From: Blastocatellia bacterium | GTDB taxonomy: Bacteria; Acidobacteriota; Blastocatellia; RBC074 | Direction of reading: 5' to 3' | Length of the DNA stretch: 54,083 nucleotides | NCBI GenBank assembly: GCA_043719385.1 | Contig: JAYSTY010000534.1 | Location: forward strand, 1 to 54,083 | In this document: positions 40,417-54,083 of the stretch, piece after piece | Numbering within the stretch: position 1 is the first letter of the stretch | Layout: the number at the start of each line of letters is the position of its first letter | Position numbers and translations under genes: made by a program | The notes under the pieces: generated by a model | Databases searched by the model: none | What the model saw: the letters and a program-made list of their open reading frames with translations, nothing else | Told to the model about the DNA's origin: nothing

Positions 40417-41964
40417 TTGCTCTTCAAAACGCTTAGCGCAGCAGTTTACGGAATTGATGCCCAACTTGTCGAGGTTGAAGTTGATTTGACCCCGCGCCCT
40501 GGCGATTCACAAAACGATACGGCTGTGATTGTTGTCGGCTTACCTGATTTAGCTGTCCGCGAAAGCCGCGAACGAATCCGTGCGGCGATTACCAACAGCG
40601 GACTTTTTTTTCCCGTTTATAAAACGACCATTAATCTTGCACCAGCCGATGTGAAAAAAGAAGGCTCGGCGTTTGACCTGCCCATTGCCATCGGGATTCT
40701 GGGTGCTAACGGCGATCTCCAGCGCGAAGATTTAGGTGATACTTTGCTGGTTGGTGAACTTGCTCTTGATGGTCGTGTGCGAGCGATTCGCGGTGCTTTG
40801 CCAATAGCTGTTGCCGCCAAACGGAATAACCTCAAGCGCCTGATTTTGCCTGCTGAAAATGCCCGCGAAGCTGCCGTCGTCAACGGTCTGGATGTTTATG
40901 CCGTGAGTGATTTGCGCGAAGTGATTGATTTGCTGAATGCCGAGACAATGCCAGAGCCGCTGAAAATTGATACTGAAGCTCTGTTGAGTGAAGCAGATCG
41001 CTACCCGATTGATTTTAGTGAAGTCCGGGGACAATTCAGTGCCAAGCGCGCGATTGAAATTGCGACCTCGGGGGGGCACAATATTTTGATGATTGGGCCG
41101 CCGGGATCAGGCAAGACCATGCTTGCCAAACGTGTCCCCACGATTTTGCCTCCGATCACTTTTGATGAGGCGTTAGAGACCACAAAAATTCATAGCGTGA
41201 CCGGATTATCTGATTCGCATGGCTTAGTGCGCCAGCGTCCTTTTCGCTCGCCGCATCACACGATTTCCGATGCCGGGTTAATCGGTGGCGGCGCGATTCC
41301 AAGACCTGGCGAAGTCTCGTTAGCCCATAACGGCGTTTTATTTCTCGACGAGCTGCCAGAGTTTGAGCGCAACGTTTTGGAAGTTTTACGGCAGCCGCTC
41401 GAAGATCATAAAGTGACGATCAGTCGGGCGGCGATGTCGCTGACCTTTCCGTCAAGTTTTATGCTCGTCGCCGCGATGAACCCCTGTCCATGCGGTTTTT
41501 TCAATGATCCAACGCGTGATTGCAAATGTAGTCCGCCGCAAATCCAGCGCTACATTGCCAAAATTTCCGGGCCATTGCTGGACCGCATAGACATTCATAT
41601 TGATGTGCCAGCGGTCAAAGTCCGTGAGCTTTCCGAGGCCGAAGCCGCCGAAGGTTCCGCCGAAATTCGCGCACGCGTGAAGCAGGCGCGGCAGCTTCAG
41701 CAGGAACGCTACGCCGGAGAAAATGTTTTTTGCAATGCGCAAATGACGCCGCGTTTGTTGCGGAAATATTGTCAGTTGGAGGTGGCGACGCAAACGATGC
41801 TGGAACGTGCGATTACGAAATATGGCTTGTCGGCGCGGGCGTATGACCGGATTCTGAAAGTCAGTCGCACCATCGCTGATTTGGAAGGAGTCGAGCAGGT
41901 CAGCGGCGATCATATCGCCGAAGCCGTGAATTTCAGGACGCTGGATCGCAATTATTGGCAATGA
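40417..41964 (+). CDS. comM: YifB/ComM Mg-chelatase-like AAA+ ATPase
   Basis: [59 protein letters not shown] and NPCPCG motifs; GGAGG RBS before TTG start. Confidence 0.93.
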
Positions 41965-41989
41965 GTATCCGCCATCTTACTCACTCACT

Positions 41990-43179
41990 TCATTCTGTGA
42001 CGAACAGGCTCGACACCTGCTGGTAGGTTGAATAGAGATAAGCTTGCTGATCGTCAGAAATAAAGATCGGGACGAGGGAAATTATCCCAACGCGACTGGG
42101 AGGTGCCATCGCTTTAAAAAATTCGCGGCGTCCGGTAGCGACATCAACCCGTTCGACGCGACAGGGAATATCGCGTCCGCGATAGACGAACCAGGCACGC
42201 CCCTCGCCGCTCCATTGCACGACGTTATCCTCTGCCGTCAGCCAGAGCTGTCTTCAGTAAATAAAACCATGCGTCCGTCCTGTGATAGCGCTTTGGATTT
42301 TGAGGTTCTGAGCCATGAAAGATGAATATCCTCAGTAGTGTTGGGTGGTACACCAGGCGTATGCACCATCGCGGTATAACGATAATCCAGGCGATTCACC
42401 AGCCATCTTCCACTATTGGCATCCGGCGCGACCGCCTGCAGCATTAACCCGCCTGGCGCTTGCTCGGCGATGCGCCGCACACCTGCCAGCGTCACGGCGA
42501 AGATTACGAAATCGCCGCCGCTCAGGCTGGCGGAGAACATGACTTCTTTGCCATCTGGTGACCAGGCCAGGCCGCGCTCGCTCCAATAACCATCGCTCAG
42601 CATGGTTTTTTGGCCTTTCAGATCAACCACGCTGACCGCGCCTTTGTCATCAAGTTTTTTCGGGTGATCGAAAAACGCGATGCGTGTGCCGTCGGGCGAA
42701 AAACGCGGATCGGTCAACATGCCGCTGATTTCATACAGTACGTTGCCGATGGGGTACTTTTTCGCCGACTTCACGAATGATAGCGAGTTGCGAACCATCG
42801 GGCGACCAGGCCGCGTGTTTGACGTTTTCGAGTAGCTCGCGGGGCGAACCACCAACCAGCGGCATCCGTGCCAGCGTTCCGCTGAACGTTCTGAAACGCT
42901 GCCAGAAAGAATCTTATAGTAACTGATCTGTTTACCTGAAGCAGAAGCTCCAGCAGGCACAGGCTGATTTTGTGCGAGGAGCGTGGCGGCAACGCCGATT
43001 GCCGGACGCGAGAGAAATTCTGCGGACTCGACGTGATTTGCCAGCAGCTTTTCAACTTCAGCACGCAAGGCCATATCGGCGCTGCAAGCCTGCGCCAGAA
43101 ACGCCGCGCGCTGTTCGGGGGCGAGTTCCAGCGCTGCATCAAAAAGCTGACCAATGCGTTGGTAGCGTTCAGGGGTCAT
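41990..43179 (-). pseudogene. Decayed membrane Ser/Thr kinase (kinase domain and TM deleted; PD40 propeller fragments in several frames)
   Basis: Starts MTPERYQRIGQLF...GKQISYYKILS like the intact kinase at 54001, then breaks before the Gly-rich loop. An alternative frame gives GTLARMPLVGGSPRELLENVKHAAWSPDG. The original frame resumes at YPIGNVLYE and stops at 42238. The C-terminus (QWSGEG...SSLFVTE) is in a separate ORF, 41990-42220. Confidence 0.9.
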
Positions 43180-43748
43180 GAAATTGCACTCAATTGTTGA
43201 TGTAACCAGGCCTGTGCCATCCGCCAGTCGCGTCGCACAGTACTGAGGGAAACCTTCATTACTTCGGCAACTTCCTCAAGGCTCAGTCCGCCAAAGAAAC
43301 GCAACTCAACAGTCCGAGCCTGACGCGGATCAAGTTTTTCCAGGGTTGTCAGCGCATCATCAAGCGCTACAAGATCGGGATTGTTCTGCGTACTGACGGT
43401 AGTAGCATCGGTAAGAGAAACCTGGATAGCCTGACCGCCGCGTTTCGTGGCTTGTTGTTCGCGGGCAAATTGCACCAGAATATGTCGCATCAGTGTCGCT
43501 GAAACGCCAAAAAAATGCGCACGGTTTTGCCACTCGACCTGCTGCCAATCAATCAGTCGCACAAAAGCTTCGTTGACTAACGCCGTAGTTTGCAATACAT
43601 GCCCACGCCGCTCGCCTGCCAGATAACCGTGCGCCAGACGATGCAATTCGCGGTACACCAGCGGCGTGAGTTGTGCCAGCGCATCCTGATCTCCATGGTT
43701 CCAGGCGACCAGTAATTGCGTGATGTTTGGGGGGGTGGGGAGGTTCAT
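43176..43748 (-). CDS. ECF sigma factor, TIGR02999 / kinase-associated (ECF43-like) type
   Basis: ITQLL.AW..GD..AL..L.PLVY.EL, LQTTALVNEA, W.NRAHFF, LDDAL..L...DPRQ..VELRFFGGL and DW..A.AWL motifs. The stop overlaps the kinase start (ATGA). Confidence 0.95.
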   Translation of the reverse strand: MNLPTPPNITQLLVAWNHGDQDALAQLTPLVYRELHRLAHGYLAGERRGHVLQTTALVNEAFVRLIDWQQVEWQNRAHFFGVSATLMRHILVQFAREQQATKRGGQAIQVSLTDATTVSTQNNPDLVALDDALTTLEKLDPRQARTVELRFFGGLSLEEVAEVMKVSLSTVRRDWRMAQAWLHQQLSAIS

Positions 43749-43845
43749 AATTTCACAGTTCGCTACAGCAACTACCTGGCTAATTTATCACATCAGACTA
43801 CGCTCAGCCATCACCCTGTTTTCTGGCAATTATTTTTTGCCCCCA

Positions 43846-43875
43846 TGAGCACTTTTGCCTGCCAATTCCCCCTTA
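43846..43875 (+). promoter_or_regulatory. Repeated 30-bp motif, copy 1 (candidate ECF promoter)
   Basis: tgagcacttttgcctgccaattccccctta, preceded by an A/T tract and divergent from the sigma gene. Confidence 0.7.
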
Positions 43876-44162
43876 TCCAATGAGAGTAAGAAATAACAAC
43901 CATGAATTTTCTTTGCAAAGGATGAGGGGCTTTGCTTTTGTCTTACGCTTTACCCATTAGAAGGAGAGCGAACGCACAATTCACCGCTCTCGTTAGAGCT
44001 AAAAACAACGCCAGATTTTCAAAGGAAAATTATGACGACATCATATGACGACATCAATGGAAGCAGCATAAATTATTGGGCGGCTGTTGCTTGAAACGAG
44101 TGGGGCAACAGTCACAGAGCCTTTTTGCTTTGACACTCACTTGAACAAAACAGGAGAAAGTT

Positions 44163-44618
44163 ATGAAACCTAATCGCTTTGTTATCGCTTCGCTCGTCGC
44201 CCTTGTGCTGACGTTGAGCGTCGTTGTTTTCGCACAAGTCAGTCGCCCGTATCGCAACGGCTCGGCATGGAACATCGGCTATATCCGCATGAAGCCTGGC
44301 ATGGAATCGGCTTATTTGAGCTACCTTGCCGGCGACTGGAAACGCGAGCAGGAAGCATTGAAAAAAGACGGGCAAATTCTTTCCTATAAAATTATCCAGA
44401 CCGAAGCACACGGCACAACTGATTTTAATTTGATGATCATGACCGAATACAAAGACCTGGCAACGCGGGAAGCCAATGAAGCTAAAGCCGACGTACTGTT
44501 ACAAAAAGTCATCGGTGATGACGATAAGCAAAGACAAGGCTATCGGGAACGGCTTGAGATTCGGGAAGTCCTGGCCAACCGACTTGGCAGAGAAATAGTT
44601 CTTGAACCCAAACGGTAA
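44163..44618 (+). CDS. Exported uncharacterised protein (possible dimeric alpha-beta barrel)
   Basis: CAGGAG RBS; signal peptide ending VFA-Q; IRMKPGM..AYL.YL...WK...EALKK.G.ILSYK. Confidence 0.8.
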   Translation: MKPNRFVIASLVALVLTLSVVVFAQVSRPYRNGSAWNIGYIRMKPGMESAYLSYLAGDWKREQEALKKDGQILSYKIIQTEAHGTTDFNLMIMTEYKDLATREANEAKADVLLQKVIGDDDKQRQGYRERLEIREVLANRLGREIVLEPKR

Positions 44619-44654
44619 TACTTTTTCAGCGGCGTGAACCACTACGTCGCCGCG

Positions 44655-44690
44655 AAGGCCGCGCAACCTGTTGAAGTTGCGCGACCTTTT
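44655..44690 (+). terminator. Probable intrinsic terminator
   Basis: aaggccgcgcaac-loop-gttgcgcgacctttt. Confidence 0.6.
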
Positions 44691-44768
44691 CTAAAGAGGA
44701 ATTGAAATGGCACATCAATGCTGTCTCAACCATCGGACAAGGCGTGCTGAAAATATTTTTTTGCGGCA

Positions 44769-44798
44769 TGAACACTTTTGCCCGCCAATTTCCCCTTA
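44769..44798 (+). promoter_or_regulatory. Repeated 30-bp motif, copy 2 (candidate ECF promoter)
   Basis: tgaacacttttgcccgccaatttcccctta, preceded by aaatattttttt, 90 nt before ATG 44889. Confidence 0.7.
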
Positions 44799-44888
44799 CA
44801 TATTAAGAGCAATCGTAACGCAGCAGTTCAGAGAAGAGCGTGACGTTTTGCCCGATTTTTTACATCACAAAAGGAGAAAAACAAAGTT

Positions 44889-45314
44889 ATGAAAACATTT
44901 GACAAAATTATTCGTCTTTCAGCCGCCCTCGCCATTGCGATGGCAGTGTTCCTGACCGGATTGAGCGCACGCACTGAGGCGCACCCGGCCAGCAAAATCC
45001 TGGCTTTCTCGAACGTCGAGAAGCACGTTCATATCAAGGTTGAAATTCACGGAGATATTGACGGTCATACAGCGGAATCGGTCGAGCATCTGATTGCCGA
45101 ATGGCTGGAAGCCGCGAAGCTTGTGGTTGAGCATACAGCGGGTGCGAATGCGCTCGAACTGCATGTGGTTTTGAATGTAACGGACAATCATCATTTCACC
45201 ATTCATGAAGATTGCGGCGATTGGCACGAAGAAAAAGAAGCAGCCGTGCTGGATGCCATTGATGACATCCTCCATCACATGACCGAGGATTTTATTGAGA
45301 AATTCAGTCATTAA
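44889..45314 (+). CDS. Exported His/acidic-rich small protein
   Basis: AAAAGGAG RBS; signal peptide; 15 His in 141 aa by hand count. Confidence 0.8.
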   Translation: MKTFDKIIRLSAALAIAMAVFLTGLSARTEAHPASKILAFSNVEKHVHIKVEIHGDIDGHTAESVEHLIAEWLEAAKLVVEHTAGANALELHVVLNVTDNHHFTIHEDCGDWHEEKEAAVLDAIDDILHHMTEDFIEKFSH

Positions 45315-45411
45315 TCAGCGGCTTTTCCCAGCAGTAAACCCCGTACCAGCAGCCCTCCCAGAATGCCGGGACATAGATAGGTGGCTGCCCATAACGACAA
45401 GGAGATAAGTA

Positions 45412-46026
45412 ATGAAAAGCCTGAAAACAGTTTTAGGTTGCGTGATCGCACTGGCGGTGATTGCCATGTGCGGTTCCGTAACCAGCCCGCTGAGCGCGAA
45501 ATCGGTGAATGCTCTGCCGCAGCAAAAGAAGCCGCCCGCCTCAAAGGTAGTGCCACATCCCGAAAATTGGATCACGTTGACGGATAAAAAAAAGGGTTAT
45601 TCCTTTGACGTGCCGCAAGGGACAGTAAGCGGCACCCAGAAATCCAGCGAACTGGATTTATTCATGGCTGTACCTCCTGAACCCTACGCTGTCGGAGTGT
45701 TAGTGATGGCCTTCAAAGACCCGAAATTATCGAAGGACGACCTGATAAATTTCGCCACAGGTGCGATGGACGGTATGAATGTCAAGAACTTCAAAGTCGT
45801 AGACGTGGTCGAATTGAGCGACGATTACAGTTTAGGGACATACACCGCGCTCAATAAGGAAGGAAAACCGATTAGAGGCAAAGTGCTGGTCGCCACGGAT
45901 GTCACCGACAACTACGTGATGATCGTCGGAACTGAAGTAAGCAAGTACAAAGCGAACGAAGAAATCATAGATGAAATCTGGGGTAGCTTCACGATGCGCA
46001 GCGGCGGCGCAAGCGGCAAGAGCTAA
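45412..46026 (+). CDS. Exported uncharacterised protein, paralog A (possible PsbP/DcrB-like fold)
   Basis: AAGGAG RBS; signal peptide; strong similarity to 46087..46737. Confidence 0.8.
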   Translation: MKSLKTVLGCVIALAVIAMCGSVTSPLSAKSVNALPQQKKPPASKVVPHPENWITLTDKKKGYSFDVPQGTVSGTQKSSELDLFMAVPPEPYAVGVLVMAFKDPKLSKDDLINFATGAMDGMNVKNFKVVDVVELSDDYSLGTYTALNKEGKPIRGKVLVATDVTDNYVMIVGTEVSKYKANEEIIDEIWGSFTMRSGGASGKS

Positions 46027-46086
46027 AACACTAATAATACAAGGCGGACAGTGATCGCCTTCAACCAATAACAGGGAGACTACGCA

Positions 46087-46737
46087 ATGAAAAACATAAA
46101 AGTAATTTTAGGTTGCCTGGCAGCGCTGACAATAATTTCACCAGGCTGTACCGTGACCACCAGTGGGAGTTTGAAAGGGAGTGCGACACCACCACCCACC
46201 ACTAAAGCCGAAACAAAGGCTGCACCAGCGGGAGCAAAGACGATCCCCGCCTCGAAGGTTGTGCCGGTTCCTGCGAACTGGATCACCATGGCTGATGACC
46301 TGAAAGGGTATTCTTTTGAAGTACCAGAAGGAACAGAGCGCAGCACCCAAAAATCCAATGGCATGGATATATTCCTGGCCTCAACCCCTGAACCGACCGC
46401 AGTCGGAATCATGGTGATGGCCTTCAAGGATCCGAAATTGACGAAAGATGACCTGGTCAAAGTTGCGACGGGCGGGCTTGAAGGGTTGGGCGCGAAGAAT
46501 ATCAAGATCGGCAGCCTGACTGAATTAAGTCCTGATTATAGCGTGGGGACGTATTCAGCAATCAATGAAGAAGGGAAGCCAGTCAAAGGCAAAGTGCTGG
46601 TGGCGACGGATATCAGTGATAACTATGTGATGGTGCTTGGAGCCGAAGAACCGGAATACAAAGCGAACGAGAAAATCATCGACGAAATTTGGGGGAGCTT
46701 CGCAATGCGCAGCGGCGGAGCCAGCGGCAAAAATTAG
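46087..46737 (+). CDS. Putative lipoprotein, paralog B
   Basis: Lipobox-like ISPG-C; shares PASKVVP.P.NWIT, VMAFKDPKL.KDDL, GKVLVATD and IIDEIWGSF.MRSGGASGK with paralog A. Confidence 0.8.
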   Translation: MKNIKVILGCLAALTIISPGCTVTTSGSLKGSATPPPTTKAETKAAPAGAKTIPASKVVPVPANWITMADDLKGYSFEVPEGTERSTQKSNGMDIFLASTPEPTAVGIMVMAFKDPKLTKDDLVKVATGGLEGLGAKNIKIGSLTELSPDYSVGTYSAINEEGKPVKGKVLVATDISDNYVMVLGAEEPEYKANEKIIDEIWGSFAMRSGGASGKN

Positions 46738-46739
46738 CA

Positions 46740-46800
46740 GAGGGCTGACTGCATCAGGGGAGTGTGCGCGTCGTGTCCTCACCCTGATGCAGTTGCCCTC
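46740..46800. other. Long intergenic stem-loop
   Basis: gagggc..actgcatcaggg pairs with ccctgatgcagt.gccctc; no U-tract follows. Confidence 0.55.
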
Positions 46801-46841
46801 TGAATTTAAACCTACGAAAAAAGCATTGAGGGGGATTACCA

Positions 46842-47663
46842 ATGAATCATTATTTCATTTCACGTCCAGCAGCGCTGACTTTTGCCGTACTTCTGATAAT
46901 AGGAGTTCTGGGAATTTACGCTTTGCCTTTTGCCGGAGCTGCCAGAGCGCAATCCAAACCAGCAGGCAAAGGCAGTTTCAAAGTTGGCTTCTCGCCGTTA
47001 AGTAAAAACAAAAATCTCAAATCAGCCATGAACGCCGAAGCTCGCAAAGCGCTGCAAGAACTGGCCGATGACATGAACAAGGTCTTCGCTCTGCCTCAGG
47101 ATCTTTATTTTACCGAAGCTACCTGCGGAGAAGCCAACGCGTTTTACGATCCAGACGCCAAACAAATCACCATGTGTATTGAGTTGATCAAGGATTTAGA
47201 GAAGAGCTTTGGCAAGGAATTCAAGGACAAACAGGAAGCAGCAGAAGCCGTAGAAGACGCTACATTGCTTATTTTCTTTCAAGAACTCGGTCATGCCCTG
47301 ATTGATCTTTACGATCTGCCGGTGACGGGAAAAGAGGAAGACGCCGTGGATCAACTCGCAGCCTTGATCGTGGCGGATGGCAGTCCCGAAGGCGCGGCAG
47401 CCGTCTTTAACGGAGCCTTGTCATTTGCGCTCGCCGCTGGCGATGGAGATTTGGATGAATCAGCTTTTTCGGATGAGCATTCGTTGAATCAACAACGCTT
47501 TTACAACCTTGTTTGCCTGCTTTATGGGCAAGACCCCAAGACGCATCAAGGATTAGTCAAAGAAAATGTCCTGCCCAAACAACGAGCGCAGCAATGCCCG
47601 TCCGAATACGACCGCGCCGATAAAGCCTGGAGTAAACTTTTGAGTCCACACCTCAAAAACTGA
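46842..47663 (+). CDS. DUF4344-like putative metallopeptidase with altered Zn motif
   Basis: CGEANAFYDP....ITMC.EL, ELGHALID..DLPVTGKEEDAVDQLA and DEHSL..QRFYN..C..YG motifs. HExxH reads QELGH here. Confidence 0.85.
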   Translation: MNHYFISRPAALTFAVLLIIGVLGIYALPFAGAARAQSKPAGKGSFKVGFSPLSKNKNLKSAMNAEARKALQELADDMNKVFALPQDLYFTEATCGEANAFYDPDAKQITMCIELIKDLEKSFGKEFKDKQEAAEAVEDATLLIFFQELGHALIDLYDLPVTGKEEDAVDQLAALIVADGSPEGAAAVFNGALSFALAAGDGDLDESAFSDEHSLNQQRFYNLVCLLYGQDPKTHQGLVKENVLPKQRAQQCPSEYDRADKAWSKLLSPHLKN

Positions 47664-47737
47664 GGAGACTCGTCAGTTTTTATTACCAGATAAGTTGAAA
47701 CAAGAACCCTTAAACTACCTGAAGGAAAAAAACAGAT

Positions 47738-48163
47738 ATGCAAACAAAACAATTTTATTTTACGCTTGGTATCATCTTCCTGCTCGCCGCTGGCTCGGCT
47801 TGTTCATTCAACGTCTCGACAGCCAATATGTCCAGCCTGAAACTGGGCAAGGAAAAACCTGTCAGCCAGGAAGTCAGCAACTTTGACCTCCACGATACCA
47901 TTTACGCCACTGCCGTCATCTCGAACAATCCCGGAGCGGTTAAAGTCAAAGGTCACATCATCATTGAGGATGTTGCCGGGCAAAAGCCAGGACCAATTCC
48001 AAGCCTGGAAATAATTGTGGAGATGACCAGTAGCGGAGACGCGAATTTCACCTTTACCCCGAATAATCCCTGGCCCGCTGGCAAATATAAATTTGAAGCC
48101 TTGATGCTGGATGAAAATGGCGAGCAAAAAGATCAGAAATCGGTACCGTTTACCATTTCCTGA
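47738..48163 (+). CDS. Putative lipoprotein, beta-sandwich-like
   Basis: Lipobox-like GSA-C followed by SFNVSTAN; WPAGKYKFE. Confidence 0.75.
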   Translation: MQTKQFYFTLGIIFLLAAGSACSFNVSTANMSSLKLGKEKPVSQEVSNFDLHDTIYATAVISNNPGAVKVKGHIIIEDVAGQKPGPIPSLEIIVEMTSSGDANFTFTPNNPWPAGKYKFEALMLDENGEQKDQKSVPFTIS

Positions 48164-48192
48164 TCCTGCATTTTCCAAATGGTTCGAGCGAG

Positions 48193-48232
48193 CGATGCAC
48201 AGGGATAGAGGCAACCCCCGGTGCATCGTTTT
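48193..48232 (+). terminator. Probable intrinsic terminator
   Basis: cgatgcac...gtgcatcg followed by tttt. Confidence 0.55.
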
Positions 48233-48413
48233 CTTCGTTGCAAATCAAGGGGGAACGAAATACTACAAACAGAAAGGATAATGAAATGTCACAAGCAGCA
48301 ACGGAACAACTCACCCGCATCATGCCGAGCGCTTGGCTAATAACGCGCCAAAATTAGTAACCGATTAACCGTGCTGCACCAGCAGCCCCAAACCCAACAA
48401 GGAGAATCGCATT

Positions 48414-48926
48414 ATGAAACGCATCTTAATCACCATCGCTCTGGCAGTCTTCGCACTATCATTCACCGCCTGCGCCACCAGCGACAATACTGGCGCCAAG
48501 ATCACGGCTGCTGTCGCAACTCCGGCGGCCTCAGTCGAAAGCTCTGCTGACATCGAAAAGGCCGTGACACAAATGGAGCGTGACTGGGAGGAAGCACTGA
48601 AAAATAAGGACAAGACCAAACTGGAAAGTCTCATCGCCGATGACTATGTCGGGATTGGCTGGGATGGCAAAACCTCTACGAAAGCCGAAAGCATCGCCAA
48701 TAGCATCGCGGCAGACACCAAACTTGATTCTTACACGCTTGATCCGGTAAAGGTGCGAGTCTACGGTGACGTTGCCATCGCCACTTCAGGCGACACGGAA
48801 AAGAGCAGTTTCAAAGGGAAAGATACGAGCGGTCGCTGGGTTTGGACGGATGTTTACGCGAAGCGCAATGGCCGCTGGCAGGCGGTCTCTTCGCACAGCG
48901 GACGTGTCCCGGAACCAAAAGCGTAA
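48414..48926 (+). CDS. NTF2-like DUF4440 lipoprotein
   Basis: Lipobox FTA-C; E.DW.EA...KD...LE.LIADDY, VRVYGDVAI and WTDVYAKRNGRWQAVSSH motifs. Confidence 0.88.
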   Translation: MKRILITIALAVFALSFTACATSDNTGAKITAAVATPAASVESSADIEKAVTQMERDWEEALKNKDKTKLESLIADDYVGIGWDGKTSTKAESIANSIAADTKLDSYTLDPVKVRVYGDVAIATSGDTEKSSFKGKDTSGRWVWTDVYAKRNGRWQAVSSHSGRVPEPKA

Positions 48927-49244
48927 CATCCGTAGTGACGATTCCGGTAGACGTAACAACTCCTTCTCGCCCCGTGCTCAGAATCGTGGGCAGACAACCG
49001 TCTTCCCGCCCGGTGTCGTGAACAACGCGTTTCGTGTGACGTTTGCGAATGCGGGCGCGTTTGCGGGGTGGACAATGAAAGGGCCGGATGGGATACTTCG
49101 CAGGGGTGTACCCTCGGTCTTATCACCGAGGCGCCCCAACCGTAACCTTCCAACTTGCGAGGTGTCATACCCCGTTTGAAGCTTTGGGTAGCGACACCTC
49201 GCAGCGCAAAGCAAGGGCAGTGAATAAAAATAATTTCTCTGCCG

Positions 49245-49274
49245 TGAACACTCTGGCACGCGAATTCCCCCTTA
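49245..49274 (+). promoter_or_regulatory. Repeated 30-bp motif, copy 3 (candidate ECF promoter)
   Basis: tgaacactctggcacgcgaattccccctta, preceded by aaaaataattt; same spacing as copies 1 and 2. Confidence 0.65.
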
Positions 49275-49476
49275 CCTCATGCAGGCGGGATTATGCGGCT
49301 TGCCAAAACCGAAAAAGCCTAAGTACAGCGAAAAGGAAGTTCTTTGATGATCTTATAGAGCCAGCATGCTCAATTCTCCCTTCTGTCTTCTCATCTCTTT
49401 CGCTGAAGATTTGAGCAGGCTGGGAAGGTCAAAGAACCTGGGGTTTCGTGTACTAGCAATAAATGAAAGGGTAACC

Positions 49477-50478
49477 ATGCAACGATCCAAGTTTTTTCTT
49501 TACCTGCTAGTGATCTCGCTCGCAAGCGCCCCGCTTACAGCGCTTGGGACACAACAAGTCGGCCCTCGAAAATACCTCATCAAACCGTTCAACCTGGGCA
49601 TCAGTACCGATGTCCGCGCCCGCTCGACACGAAATCTACAGGTCCGCGTAACAGATGAAAATGACCGACCCATCCCTGACGCGCAGGTATTATTCTTACT
49701 AAGCAGCGGTGGTACGGACAGCAGTAGTGTTGGTTCATTTGCCGGACAAACCTCCTTGCGCGCAATGACCAATGCAGAGGGCGTCGCGCAAGTGGATTAC
49801 ACGGCGGGAGAGACTGTTGGTAGTAAAGCCAGAATCAGGGCCCAGGTTGAGGGTTCCGATGCCGTTTTGGAAGTAGCACTACTCATCATCAGTGCGCTGA
49901 CCGGAGACTCGCCCCCTCAATCGTCCCCTCAATCGTCCCCTCAATCGTCCCCTCAATCGTCCCCTCAATCGTCCCCTCAAGTGGCTCCTCAAGCGGCATC
50001 GCAAAAGGAAATTCCATTTGTCAGCGGTCTGGCAATCGGGCAAATGCCAAAATCATCCGTCGCACATCAAACCTTTACAACGATTGGTGGAGATAAGGTC
50101 AGCCTGGATTCCAGGCGTGGCAAAATTATTGTTGTGGTCTTCTTCGGAACCTGGTGCCCCATCTCTAAGCAACAGTTCCAGGCGATGCCGAGTATCCTTG
50201 CGGAGGAAGTACAAGTGGTCGGAATGTCCGTCAAAGATCCCCGTGCAACGCCACAAATGTTGCTGCAATTTATGACTGAACAAAAGGTGAATTATCCGGT
50301 TGTCAAGGATGTCGAGGATAAGCATTTTATGAAATTTGTGGGTAACCAAAATGTGTCTGTCCCGCAAACAGTGATTTACGGTCGAGACGGTCGGATTATT
50401 GCGCATTTTCTGGGCTTTAACCAACAAGTCGGAGCCGAGATTGGGCAGAAAATCAAAGATGAATTAGTAAAAAAATAA
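49477..50478 (+). CDS. Exported fusion protein: Ig-like (Big-1-like) domain, PQSS linker, TlpA/redoxin domain
   Basis: Start re-assigned to MQRSKFFL (signal peptide); VRVTDENDRPI..AQVLF and TNAEGVA (Ig-like); SLDS.RGKIIVV.FFGTWCPIS and VPQTVIYGRDG (thioredoxin fold). Confidence 0.8.
   Translation: MQRSKFFLYLLVISLASAPLTALGTQQVGPRKYLIKPFNLGISTDVRARSTRNLQVRVTDENDRPIPDAQVLFLLSSGGTDSSSVGSFAGQTSLRAMTNAEGVAQVDYTAGETVGSKARIRAQVEGSDAVLEVALLIISALTGDSPPQSSPQSSPQSSPQSSPQSSPQVAPQAASQKEIPFVSGLAIGQMPKSSVAHQTFTTIGGDKVSLDSRRGKIIVVVFFGTWCPISKQQFQAMPSILAEEVQVVGMSVKDPRATPQMLLQFMTEQKVNYPVVKDVEDKHFMKFVGNQNVSVPQTVIYGRDGRIIAHFLGFNQQVGAEIGQKIKDELVKK
49909..49980 (+). repeat. In-frame 12-bp tandem repeat
   Basis: (tcgtcccctcaa)x5 exact at 49921-49980, plus one variant at 49909-49920; encodes SSPQ units. 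Confidence 0.95.
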
Positions 50479-51028: not shown

Positions 51029-54001
51029 TCAACGAAAATTTTCCATCAGCATGAGTTCATCGTAGGGTTGTTCCAGATGGGCGAAGAGCAGACGGCGGCC
51101 ATCCGCTGACAGGGCTAACCCCGGCGCCCACCAGAGCGGCGCATCTGTAAGTGTAATCAGAGAAGTAGTGCGGCGCGTAGCAAAACTGAAAAAGCGAATC
51201 GCCCAGCGTGATTCGCTTTCCTTGGCGGCGAAGCAAATGCCTTCCTTCACCACCGTCCACGAACGCCAGTACCCCGCGTCTCTTAGTTCGGGCACGAGTG
51301 TTTCTTCGCCGCCGTTGACGGGAACCGAATAAATGCCATCGCCGCCGCGCGCTTTGGTGTAATAAAACAGCTTGCCATTGGGCGACTCAAAGCCCTCGAA
51401 GCCGCCCTTGAACGTGATCTGTTTAGCTTCACCACCGGCGGCGGGCATTTTATGAATCTGGTTGTTGCCGCTGCGGTTCGATTTGAAATAAAGCCATTGC
51501 CCGTCGCGCGACCAGGCGGGCAGGTTATCCGTCGTTTTCTCAAACGTCAGCCTACGCCAGACACTGTCACCTGCCGCGCTCATCACGTAAATGTCTCCAT
51601 CGCCGTTGGTGAAAGAATCAAAGGCGATCCATTTGCCGTCGTAAGACCAGCGTGGCGAGCCAGCCGAACCCGAGCGCGTGAGTTGGCGCGCGGCAGTCTT
51701 TCCCTCGGCGTCACACAGCCAGAGTTCTGGCAGGCCGGTGCGCTCTGAGGCAAAGACAATCGTTTGACCATCGGGAGAAAAAGACGGGCCCTGGTCTTCG
51801 TAAAGCGAAGAGTTGGGCAAGCGCACAGGCGCGCCGAATTTGCCCGGCACATCCCGCCCCGCGAAGCCTGCACCTTGATAGAGCCAGAGATTCGAATCGC
51901 TGGACAGTTCCGTCCAAACCAGTTTGTCACCCTGCCGCGAGATTTCAGGGTAGACGGGATTTTGTCCGTTGACCGGCACGCGCGTGGATGTGCCGCCTTG
52001 CGCGGAAATGCGCCAGAGGCCGCGCGTGTTGCGCCGAGTGGTGCTGAAAACGATTTCGCGGCTGTCACTGGTCCAGGCCAGTCCGGCGATTCGACTTTTC
52101 TCAAAGGTCAGTTGCCGCAGCGCGCCGTCGCCAAGCGAGATGACGCAAATATCTTTTTCGTTCGTGCCAAAATCGCGCGCGAAAGCCACCATCTTCCCAT
52201 CCGGTGAAAAGCGCGGGCTGTTATCGTTCATTGTTGGCATCGTTGGCTCCGGCGTGGTCAGGCGGGTGCGCTGGCCTGTTTCCGGCGTCACGAGAAAAAT
52301 GCCGCTGCGTTCGGCTGATCCGTGAAGTCCCGCCACCGCCAGCGTTTTGCCATCCGGCGACCAGGCTGGCGGGGTGGATGTTTCCGCCAGCTTCTGCTCT
52401 GGCCCGCCACTGGCCGACACCTGCAACACGTCGTTGCCGCGCACGAAGGTCACGTATTTGCCATCCGGCGTCCAACAGGGAGCAGAGCTACCGGCGGGTG
52501 CGGTCGTCAGCCGCAGCGGCGGCCCATCTGTGCCGATTACCTTGACGTAAATATCAGAGGGGCCGACTTCAGCGCCGCGTCCGCCATCCCACGCAAAAGC
52601 CAGGCGGCTTTCATCCGGCGAAAGCGCGGCAAAGTTTTTCTTGCCTGCCATACCGATCAGCGGCACGAATCTGGTTTCGGCGGCGGGTTGTTCCGCGGCA
52701 TGGTTGCGTGCAGTCAGCCAGCGATAACTGCCAACCCCTAACACGCTCGCCAACGCCAGCGCAGCAGCCAGCCATTTCAGACGATGCGCTCGCCACACCG
52801 ACAGTCCTGCCAATGGTTGAGTTGAATGGATGGGGACATCTATCTGTCCCGTCTCTTTGCGAATGCCTTGTGTTCCATTGTCGCGCGCAGCCGCGAATTG
52901 CAACGTAGACTGGTTTGCGATGTCATTCGTCGCACTCAGGTCGGCCAGATTGGCTTGCCCGAGTTCATCCAGGAAGGCGCGGATGTTTGGATAGCGTTGA
53001 TCGCGCTCTTTGGCGAGCATGCGGCTGATAATTTTTTGCAGCTTGTCAGGTGTGGGGGAAACGAACTGACACAGCGGTGGTGGTTCTTTTTCTAACAGCG
53101 CGGCAAACACTTCGGCGGTTGATACGCCTGAGAAGGCCTGTTCGCCCGTGATCATTTCATAAAACACGACACCCAGGCTGAACATATCCGTGCGCGCATC
53201 CACTTTCAACCCACGCGCCTGCTCCGGCGACATATAGCGCGGCGTACCCATCACGAGGCCTGCTTGCGTACTGTCATCAGTCTGTGAGCGCGTTTCAGCA
53301 AAGCGCGCCAGTCCGAAATCAAGCACTTTGACCAATCCGTCCGGGCGCAGCATGACGTTTTCGGGTTTGATGTCGCGGTGATAGATGCCTGCTTCGTGGG
53401 CGGTGTCGAGCGCCGCTGCGATTTGTTTGATGATGGCGAGCGCCTCTGGCAACGGCAGCCGTCCCACTGTCAGGCGCTGGCGCAAGGTCACGCCCGCAAT
53501 GAATTCCATCGCAATGAAATGAACGCGCTCGGCCTCGCCGATTTCATAAATCGTGATGATGTTCGGATGATTGGGAGCCGAGGCCGCGCGGGCTTCGCGC
53601 AGGAAGCGTTGTAATCGTTCAGTGCTTTGGGCGTCGTCCTGCGTGAATGCAGCGGGCAACAACTTAATCGCTACCTGACGTTCCAGCCGCGTATCGCGTG
53701 CCAGCCAGACTTCACCCATCCCGCCAGCGCCGAGCAACGAAAGAACTTGATAGTGGCTGATCTGTTGGCCTGCCGCCGGACTCTTTTGCGCCAACAGCGC
53801 GGCGGCCACTTCGAGCGCAGGCGCGGCAATGAAATCCTCTGCTTGCGCCTGCGCATCCGCCACCAGCAATTGCTCGACGGACTGTCGCAGCTCGTGGTCT
53901 TCGGCGCACGCACCCAACAGAAAAGCTCCGCGCTGCGTTGGCTCCAGGCTCACCGCCGTTTGATAAAGGTGACCGATTTGTTGGTAGCGTTCAGGAGTCA
54001 T
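51029..54001 (-). CDS. Membrane Hanks-type Ser/Thr kinase with extracytoplasmic PD40/TolB-like beta-propeller
   Basis: Probable start MTPERY (ATG 54001, coupled to the upstream sigma stop); LGAGGMGEV, VAIK, HRDIKPEN, DFGLA and GTPRYMSPEQ motifs; one TM helix; many [WF]SPDG repeats. Confidence 0.95.
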   Translation of the reverse strand: MTPERYQQIGHLYQTAVSLEPTQRGAFLLGACAEDHELRQSVEQLLVADAQAQAEDFIAAPALEVAAALLAQKSPAAGQQISHYQVLSLLGAGGMGEVWLARDTRLERQVAIKLLPAAFTQDDAQSTERLQRFLREARAASAPNHPNIITIYEIGEAERVHFIAMEFIAGVTLRQRLTVGRLPLPEALAIIKQIAAALDTAHEAGIYHRDIKPENVMLRPDGLVKVLDFGLARFAETRSQTDDSTQAGLVMGTPRYMSPEQARGLKVDARTDMFSLGVVFYEMITGEQAFSGVSTAEVFAALLEKEPPPLCQFVSPTPDKLQKIISRMLAKERDQRYPNIRAFLDELGQANLADLSATNDIANQSTLQFAAARDNGTQGIRKETGQIDVPIHSTQPLAGLSVWRAHRLKWLAAALALASVLGVGSYRWLTARNHAAEQPAAETRFVPLIGMAGKKNFAALSPDESRLAFAWDGGRGAEVGPSDIYVKVIGTDGPPLRLTTAPAGSSAPCWTPDGKYVTFVRGNDVLQVSASGGPEQKLAETSTPPAWSPDGKTLAVAGLHGSAERSGIFLVTPETGQRTRLTTPEPTMPTMNDNSPRFSPDGKMVAFARDFGTNEKDICVISLGDGALRQLTFEKSRIAGLAWTSDSREIVFSTTRRNTRGLWRISAQGGTSTRVPVNGQNPVYPEISRQGDKLVWTELSSDSNLWLYQGAGFAGRDVPGKFGAPVRLPNSSLYEDQGPSFSPDGQTIVFASERTGLPELWLCDAEGKTAARQLTRSGSAGSPRWSYDGKWIAFDSFTNGDGDIYVMSAAGDSVWRRLTFEKTTDNLPAWSRDGQWLYFKSNRSGNNQIHKMPAAGGEAKQITFKGGFEGFESPNGKLFYYTKARGGDGIYSVPVNGGEETLVPELRDAGYWRSWTVVKEGICFAAKESESRWAIRFFSFATRRTTSLITLTDAPLWWAPGLALSADGRRLLFAHLEQPYDELMLMENFR

Positions 54002-54083
54002 GATTGAGAGAGTTGCAGGTGAAGCCAGGCGCGTGCCTGACGCCAATCGCTATGCAATGTGCTGACAGAAACTTGCAGGATAG
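53998..54083 (-). CDS. 3' end of a second TIGR02999-type ECF sigma factor (partial; not in ORF track)
   Basis: The minus strand translates to ILQVSVSTLHSDWRQARAWLHLQLSQS*, matching VMKVSLSTVRRDWRMAQAWLHQQLSAIS* of the first sigma. Same ATGA overlap with the kinase start. Confidence 0.88.
   Translation of the reverse strand, partial: ILQVSVSTLHSDWRQARAWLHLQLSQS

Follow-up and report, generated by a model that had tools for sequence, protein, structure and literature searches.

A putative three-promoter regulon of an ECF43-type sigma factor in a Blastocatellia bacterium

Kinase-activated sigma factors of group ECF43, one of the groups into which extracytoplasmic function (ECF) sigma factors fall, occur abundantly in Acidobacteriota and Planctomycetes, and to our knowledge the target promoters are known for few of them. 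Here, we describe a 30-nt motif that occurs three times beside a gene for an ECF43-like sigma factor in a 54,083-nt stretch of DNA from a Blastocatellia bacterium (Acidobacteriota; GenBank assembly GCA_043719385.1, contig JAYSTY010000534.1). This stretch, called the window below, is one whole contig of an assembly of 6.35 Mb, which consists of 557 contigs, is 95.7% complete and was searched in full. An earlier note, made from the sequence of the window alone, had noticed the motif and taken it for a promoter of the adjacent ECF sigma factor. Several questions follow. Is the motif confined to this locus? Does it accompany the sigma gene in other bacteria? Which protein reads it, and how is that protein controlled?

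The locus and its three motif copies

The sigma factor, a protein of 190 amino acids (aa) encoded on the minus strand, matches the families PF07638 (192.4 bits, cut-off 21.1) and TIGR02999 (215.5 bits, cut-off 126.15). Its region 2.2 carries Q53-T54-T55-A56, where most sigma factors carry acidic residues, and QT(T/S)A is kept in all 29 of the orthologues compared. QTTA has been described as the ECF43 consensus that includes the phosphorylated threonine (PMC13147305), and the ECF43 member EcfP as being activated through phosphorylation of the second threonine (PMC8999054). As these two papers define it, the motif is an uncharged QTTA or STTA that contains a phospho-acceptor threonine and takes the place of DAED in region 2.2. 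Of the 21 sigma genes of this group mapped in other genomes, 19 have on their 3′ side a gene for a Ser/Thr kinase, the sensor parts of which vary. In the window, this place is occupied by a gene for a 313-aa protein (Table 1), which shares 49% identity over 94 aa with the kinase N-terminus by BLASTP; a tblastn search of 41900-43300 detected no remnant of a kinase domain in any frame. The gene has the look of a kinase gene that has decayed or been remodelled. No Pfam family covers the stretch of about 90 aa at the N-terminus that its product has in common with the sigma-linked kinases, and contact with the sigma factor might be made through this stretch.

Each of the three copies of the motif is 30 nt long, lies on the plus strand between genes, follows an A/T tract and precedes genes of the plus strand, as the earlier note had exactly located them. 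The start of copy 1 and the sigma start codon (43748), on opposite strands, are 98 nt apart, close to the 100 bp given before, and a terminator-like hairpin does stand in front of copy 2. Copies 2 and 3 have AAC in their first block, while copy 1 begins with TGAGCAC, a rare AGC variant. The ends of the motif are its most conserved part, and it is neither palindromic nor internally repeated; both properties, noticed before in the three copies, are also seen in the profile of 69 sites described below.

How specific is the motif? The pattern of the earlier note, with up to three mismatches allowed, finds these three copies and nothing else in the window, against 0.00 expected from 100 shuffles. 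Throughout the genome, the ends-only pattern TGARCAC-N15-YCCCCTTA with at most one mismatch matches the same three sites and no others; its reversed control gives 1+2 matches, and thus the loose pattern alone is not significant. The stricter pattern TGAACACTTT-N13-CCCCTTA has three matches in the genome versus none for its control. An nhmmer profile trained on 66 sites from other genomes only finds, at full length, exactly the three copies (E values in Table 1), the next match having E=1.1. A loose search for GAAC-N17-21-CCCTTA yielded 13 matches, two of which are copies in the window; the most similar of the other matches, C149:13267, lies in a region that was read as coding. Since the window, genome pattern and profile searches agree, the motif can be regarded as real, non-random and confined to this locus, where all three copies lie within one 5.4-kb stretch beside the sigma gene.

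The pairing of motif and sigma gene extends to other genomes. A scan of the family with the ends-only pattern, which covered 87 genomes (86 besides this one), gave 41 matches without mismatch outside this genome. The inner 15 nt, which the pattern leaves unconstrained, are kept in 40 of them, and these look intergenic; the remaining match, in L083, has no inner consensus and lies inside an open reading frame (ORF) of 569 aa, and it is therefore taken as chance. About 15 of the 41 matches are directly divergent to the gene of a sigma factor 78-92% identical to that of the window, and the others precede further genes, in many cases on the same contig at a distance of a few kb. According to crude ORF calls, the next ORF of at least 100 aa that the motif points at lies on the strand of the motif in 33 of the 41, with its start 24-641 nt downstream (median 155); the eight exceptions comprise six sites that face small or opposite-strand ORFs, a site at the end of a contig and the chance match in L083. 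In the reverse direction, the 29 best protein matches of the sigma factor (77-93% identity, one locus per genome) were picked by protein score. The divergent strand carries a site agreeing with the consensus at 20-30 of 30 positions, 89-239 nt from the start codon, in 25 of these loci, and variant forms of the motif occur in two more. Hence the motif, which the earlier note had proposed to seek upstream of orthologous loci, accompanies 27 of 29 sigma genes. At the class level, genomes with the stricter pattern number 30 out of 86 in this family, 8 out of 53 in a second, 2 out of 120 in a third and 1 out of 14 in a fourth, and some of the single matches look like chance. Three loci from two other families combine a sigma factor 85-88% identical to that of the window with a site 94-107 nt away.

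Three near-identical copies within 5.4 kb might also be a short dispersed repeat, a recombination site or the end of a mobile element, without any role in transcription. To this we give almost no credence. The genome has three copies only, with no inverted partner, and the profile detected no additional or randomly oriented copies, the latter of which the earlier note had named as the mark of a repeat. All three share one orientation and all precede plus-strand genes. Across genera and families the motif is kept at syntenic positions beside the sigma gene while the flanks diverge. No Rfam family or repeat lies on the copies: a scan of 43700-49600 at E<=1 returned three sub-threshold snoRNA/sRNA matches (20-21 bits against gathering cut-offs of 44-100), none of them on the motif.

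Table 1. Features of the window discussed in the text, in the order of their coordinates
Feature	Coordinates	Strand	Remarks
313-aa gene 3′ of sigma	42238..43179	-	~90-aa kinase-like N-terminus and PD40 repeats (PF07676)
ECF sigma factor, 190 aa, ECF43-like	43176..43748	-	PF07638, TIGR02999; QTTA in translation
Predicted promoter module 1	43828..43889	+	A/T tract 43828-43838, core 43846-43875, downstream box to 43889; nhmmer E 1.2e-14
Predicted target gene 1, 151 aa	44163..44618	+	Behind module 1; signal peptide, no family
Terminator-like hairpin, T-rich tail	44660..44683	+	Between target gene 1 and module 2
Predicted promoter module 2	44750..44813	+	A/T tract 44750-44762, core 44769-44798; nhmmer E 7.7e-16
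Predicted target cluster 2, six genes	44889..48926	+	Behind module 2
Predicted promoter module 3	49226..49288	+	A/T tract 49223-49236, core 49245-49274; nhmmer E 6.8e-13
Predicted target gene 3, exported Big_1 + AhpC/TSA (TlpA/ResA-like thiol-disulfide oxidoreductase)	49477..50478	+	Start inferred from signal peptide
Ser/Thr kinase, PD40/TolB-like propeller, 990 aa	51029..54001	-	From ATG 54001; family matches, start re-read
Second PF07638-type sigma, last 27 codons and stop	53998..54081	-	Cut by contig end; aligned by eye

Architecture of the promoter block

A profile of 69 unique sites, aligned without gaps, has revealed that the conserved unit is about 62 nt long, extending from 18 nt before to 14 nt after the 30-nt motif. 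Thus, the bipartite 30-nt unit of the earlier note is exact as a core, and what is conserved is about twice as long. From 5′ to 3′ the block consists of AAA-WWWW-TTTTT; a variable stretch of about 7 nt with CC-R at its end; TGAACAC; TTT(T); G C.. G C.. A T T; CCCCCTTA; and... A. T R A R R G C A. The commonest form of the site among the family hits is TGAACACTTTTGCCCGCCGATTCCCCCTTA. Information is highest in GAAC, in the T-tract that follows it and in the 7-nt −10 block. Profile positions 3 and 5 are A and C, respectively, in all 69 sites, and position 4 is A in 66 and G in 3. The distance of 17 nt from GAACAC to CCCTTA is fixed in the three copies of the window as well as in all 69 sites.

Transcription starts usually prefer a pyrimidine at −1 and a purine at +1. 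The start was set at profile position 37, a purine that follows the conserved T36 and lies 7 nt past the end of CCCTTA, and transcription is accordingly predicted to begin at 43882 (G), 44805 (A) and 49281 (G), all on the plus strand. Given this +1, the core extends from about −36 to −7, with GAACAC at −35 to −30, the T-tract at −29 to −26 and CCCTTA at −12 to −7 as part of CCCCCTTA at −14 to −7, and the A/T tract lies at about −55 to −44.

Which class of promoter does this resemble? The −35 element contains AAC, and the −10 block, replaced by CACATG in one sister group, has no CGT. For ECF promoters of Bacillus subtilis, PMC5758882 gives tGAAACnTTTt with T at −26 to −29, and it describes ECF −10 elements as group-specific. 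Because GAAC and the T-tract match those B. subtilis promoters, the −35 element is counted as generic ECF type. The earlier note had considered both elements unlike the generic ECF consensus; this holds for the CCCTTA −10 and has to be given up for the −35. Two other classes were tried and rejected. CCCTTA is identical to TATAAT of a sigma-70 promoter at no position. As for a sigma-54 promoter (GG-N10-GC), TGGCAC occurs in copy 3 only, copies 1 and 2 read TTGCC, and the 69-site profile has no conserved GG.

The block has further conserved parts on both sides of its core. The upstream tract AAA-WWWW-TTTTT (profile positions −18 to −7, 0.6-1.8 bits) agrees with the UP-element consensus AAAWWTWTTTTNNNAAA (PMC2412878) over its first eleven positions, AAAWWTWTTTT, which is a match in sequence only. 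At the predicted 5′ end of the transcripts there is a purine-rich, Shine-Dalgarno-like box, A.TRARRGCAA (43879-43889, 44802-44813 and 49278-49288, plus strand), which is also present in the promoters of distant sigma paralogues. Folding of the leaders of the 69 sites gave a mean z-score of −0.66, with 17% of the leaders below −1.5; in these, all from other genomes, a hairpin occurs whose 5′ arm is the +1 to +8 box. For the three leaders of the window, folding is not better than that of shuffled sequences (z −1.0, +0.3 and +1.2), and a general RNA element in the leaders was rejected.

Recognition of the motif by the adjacent sigma factor

If the adjacent sigma factor reads the motif, its DNA-contacting regions should vary together with the site. 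Covariation was followed in 45 sigma factors at least 74% identical; a site is present for 42 of them. A region 4.2 helix of the form S/T-TVRR goes with a site starting with TGA in 32 of 32 cases (31 TGAAC and one degenerate), and G-TV(R/S/N)R goes with a TTA start (TTAACAC, TTAACGA or TTAGTGA) in 10 of 10. In region 2, F(V/L)..W with T(H/R/Y) is accompanied by a CCCTTA-like −10 element (36/36) and YL..A/T with HQ by CACATG (6/6), the −35 element and sigma-4 being unchanged in the latter. The grouping was drawn up from the first 30 loci, and further loci were picked by protein score only; the sigma signature predicted the type of site in all 15 new loci that have one. The −35 element moves with sigma-4 only and the −10 element with sigma-2 only, which supports direct recognition by this sigma factor.

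Could the motif instead be the operator of a DNA-binding regulator that acts with another sigma factor, its location beside the ECF gene reflecting co-regulation? A 30-mer is long for a promoter core, and both the spacer and the downstream box show unusual conservation for a site that only a sigma factor contacts. However, the modular variation, tracked separately by sigma-2 and sigma-4 residues, is not what an unrelated DNA-binding protein would give, and both the spacing and the content of the motif are ECF-like (GAAC at −35 and the T-tract). The lack of a palindrome or internal repeat also argues against an operator, as does the fact that, apart from the sigma factor and the kinase, no regulator gene is consistently adjacent. 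In a direct comparison, CCCTTA also agrees with TATAAT at 0 of 6 positions. We therefore regard an operator as improbable.

Another candidate reader lies at the end of the contig, the final 84 nt of which encode the C-terminus ..STLHSDWRQARAWLHLQLSQS of a second sigma factor. Its stop codon overlaps the ATG of the Ser/Thr kinase gene (54001), and the kinase is for this reason assigned to the second sigma factor as its partner, not to the sigma factor at 43176-43748. A call of a 1005-aa ORF for this kinase, with TTG at 54046, is over-extended. Moreover, the genome has 14 strong PF07638 matches, of which the other 13 share 41-59% identity with the adjacent sigma factor. By eye, the divergent upstream regions of most of these paralogues contain an A/T tract, a T-tract with GC, a C-rich/TTA or CATG −10 element and (A/G)TGA(G/A)(A/G)G. 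Loci with this scaffold include C130:18002, C434:17954, C241:6644 and C177:17806, and further C420:7747, C105:41670, C417:14583 and C1:23059. The scaffold is common to them and the bases at −35 and −10 differ, so that the motif of the window appears as the form that a promoter design shared by the whole clade takes in one paralogue, with a downstream purine box that is independent of the paralogue; the upstream scaffolds are probably private promoters of the respective sigma factors.

It is conceivable that the sites are ECF43-type promoters read here by a different sigma factor, either the truncated second one or, through cross-talk, others of the 14 PF07638 paralogues. The absence of a kinase domain from the product of the gene after the adjacent sigma gene and the orientation of the second sigma-kinase pair, convergent to the regulon, would fit such a substitution, as would the number of strong PF07638 matches in the genome. 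Yet identity to the other 13 paralogues is only 41-59% and their own divergent regions carry other −35 and −10 elements on the same scaffold, and the region 4.2 helix of the second sigma factor reads STLHSDW, not STVRRDW as in the adjacent one. A change of reader is accordingly a very unlikely explanation.

We estimate at about 0.85 the probability that each 30-mer is a promoter core read by RNA polymerase together with the adjacent ECF43-type sigma factor, the three promoters constituting a local regulon of eight genes. The promoter role proposed in the earlier note is upheld by the pairing of sigma factor and motif in both directions, by the modular covariation and by the absence of stray copies from the genome. 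An outline of the proposed process is as follows: region 4.2 of the sigma factor (helix ..STVRRDW..) would read TGAACAC at −36 to −30 and region 2 (..FVRLIDW.., ..SATLMRH..) would read CCCCCTTA, with the T-tract and the semi-conserved spacer setting the geometry between them. The UP-element-like tract AAAWWWWTTTTT would probably recruit the alpha subunit of the polymerase. Transcription would then start at the purine 7 nt past CTTA, module 1 driving the 151-aa gene, module 2 the six-gene cluster and module 3 the Big_1/thioredoxin-like gene.

Several observations weigh against this explanation. Copy 1 has G at the near-invariant A4. The −10 element lacks the CGT typical of ECF promoters. Conservation at spacer positions G12 C13, G16 C17 and A20 T21 T22 and in the +1 to +8 box exceeds what contacts with the sigma factor would require by themselves, which leaves room for a second factor. 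Two of the 29 orthologous sigma loci (L057 and L063) have no site, nor does L108, one new locus of the C type, and 6 of the 41 matches in other genomes face small, opposite-strand or ambiguous ORFs by the crude calls. The covariation groups coincide with clades and therefore represent few independent events. Finally, the gene next to the sigma gene encodes no kinase domain, which puts the activation of this sigma factor in question here.

A more far-reaching proposal is offered tentatively and should be taken as rather doubtful: that the sigma factor and its 62-nt promoter are a conserved, portable output cassette, that their variants make up a two-part ECF43 recognition code, and that the UP-like tract and the +1 to +8 box are a functional clade-wide scaffold. 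Across genera and two or more families, the sigma factor keeps 77-93% identity, and the kinase sensor domains and target genes vary. For the −35 element, the code would couple S to G and R to S/N in sigma-4 with the series TGAACAC, TTAACAC, TTAGTGA; for the −10 element, it would couple F/V/W/T/H to Y/L/A/H/Q in sigma-2 with the change from CCCTTA to CACATG. The UP-like tract and the box are common to the promoters of the 41-59% identical paralogues too, and their role may be, for example, recruitment of the alpha subunit combined with a 5′-end stabilizer of the mRNA or a ribosome standby site.

Target genes, control of the sigma factor and relation to known systems

The three promoters would account for the whole regulon detectable in the genome, consisting of eight genes for exported proteins or lipoproteins; all eight products, as read from their translations, start with a signal- or lipoprotein-like sequence. 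Orthologues of the 151-aa protein, 80% identical, stand behind the motif in two other genomes (L042 and L096), and a language-model atlas gave no lead for this protein. The six-gene cluster comprises a 141-aa gene, two paralogues of 204 and 216 aa, a putative metallopeptidase of the DUF4344 family, a 141-aa immunoglobulin (Ig)-like protein and a DUF4440 protein. The tandem, lipoprotein-like paralogues (45412-46026 and 46087-46737, plus strand) belong to no Pfam or NCBIfam family; for the 216-aa lipoprotein, the atlas offers a DcrB-like (PF08786) lead with a score of 0.95 and 161 shared features. Elsewhere, homologues of the Ig-like, DUF4344, 204/216-aa, DUF4440 and 151-aa genes are found behind the motif, beside many unrelated genes.

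Two loci of other genomes illustrate how the parts are distributed. In L041 (G039:C407:1-13720), from the same genus, a Mg-chelatase-like gene (99% identical) is followed directly by a motif copy with the 141-aa and DUF4440 genes; the sigma, 313-aa and 151-aa genes are absent there, and 9 kb away lies a 79% identical sigma factor with a kinase and a motif copy of its own. This arrangement indicates that the locus has been rearranged between close relatives. L044 (G072:C120:1-20000) contains two sigma-kinase modules of the TGAAC/CCCTTA type 7 kb apart, with their own divergent motifs and different kinases; judging from this locus, some genomes may have several sensors that act on a single type of promoter.

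How is the sigma factor itself controlled? Autoregulation through the motif is not borne out: on the sigma-sense strand of 30 loci, the best agreement with the motif is 13-18 of 30 positions, which is background. A different sequence is conserved there in the orthologous loci, T.GC.GA ... TGTG.TA, which is extended −10-like. In the window it occupies 43782-43810 on the minus strand, with TGGCTG at 43810->43805 and TGATAAATT at 43790->43782, and it is present in nearly all orthologous loci. This element looks like an extended −10 housekeeping-type promoter of the sigma operon, placed back to back with the ECF promoter. Since the motif is absent from the sense strand and an extended −10-like sequence stands there instead, post-translational control is expected: the sigma-kinase operon is probably transcribed constitutively, and phosphorylation of the threonine in QTTA would be the switch, as in characterized ECF43 members. 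The phosphorylated sigma factor presupposed by the earlier note is therefore plausible as far as QTTA is concerned; what speaks against it is that the adjacent gene encodes no kinase domain and that the kinase of the window is paired with the second sigma factor. The sigma factor may be activated by cross-phosphorylation, or it may be silent.

This type of switch is ordinary for bacteria, and the locus is a well-defined example in a poorly mapped group of kinase-controlled sigma factors. Promoter prediction for ECF groups is described as resting on autoregulation, with no motif obtained for subgroups that do not regulate themselves (PMC7826278). In the literature searched, no promoter consensus was found for ECF43/TIGR02999 sigma factors of this lineage, and an earlier prediction for ECF43 may exist. 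The locus offers a precise predicted promoter with its starts and a candidate mini-regulon of eight exported proteins, and the natural variants of sigma factor and promoter could guide specificity swaps and the design of orthogonal sigma-promoter pairs. The apparently decayed kinase gene poses the question whether the sigma factor is silent or cross-activated.

Among known systems, the closest likeness is to the ECF promoters of B. subtilis sigmaV/W/X/M and of the E. coli RpoE group ECF02, as described in PMC5758882. Both kinds of promoter are bipartite with a fixed spacing and have GAAC followed by T at −29 to −26 (tGAAACnTTTt there, TGAACACTTTT here), and in both cases the promoter neighbours the sigma gene, with envelope or exported proteins as its (here predicted) targets. 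In contrast to those promoters, the −10 element is CCCCCTTA instead of CGT(A/C), the site is divergent from the sigma gene and not autoregulatory, and there is a strong UP-like tract, a conserved +1 to +8 box and a partly conserved spacer. The A/T tract resembles the UP element of sigma-70 promoters in that AAA-WWWW-TTTT(T) at about −55 to −44 comes close to the distal subsite near −52 (PMC2412878), whereas it is attached to an ECF-type promoter and the proximal AAA subsite is not conserved. The sigma factor itself resembles the ECF43 systems EcfP/PknT of Vibrio parahaemolyticus and EcfK/PknS of Xanthomonas citri in several features: QTTA replaces the acidic DAED of region 2.2, a Hanks-type kinase gene follows the sigma gene in relatives, and no gene for an anti-sigma domain was seen adjacent. 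Unlike EcfP and EcfK, it has its relatives mostly in Acidobacteriota (by the atlas listing), serves a different predicted regulon and is followed here by a kinase gene from which the kinase domain is missing.

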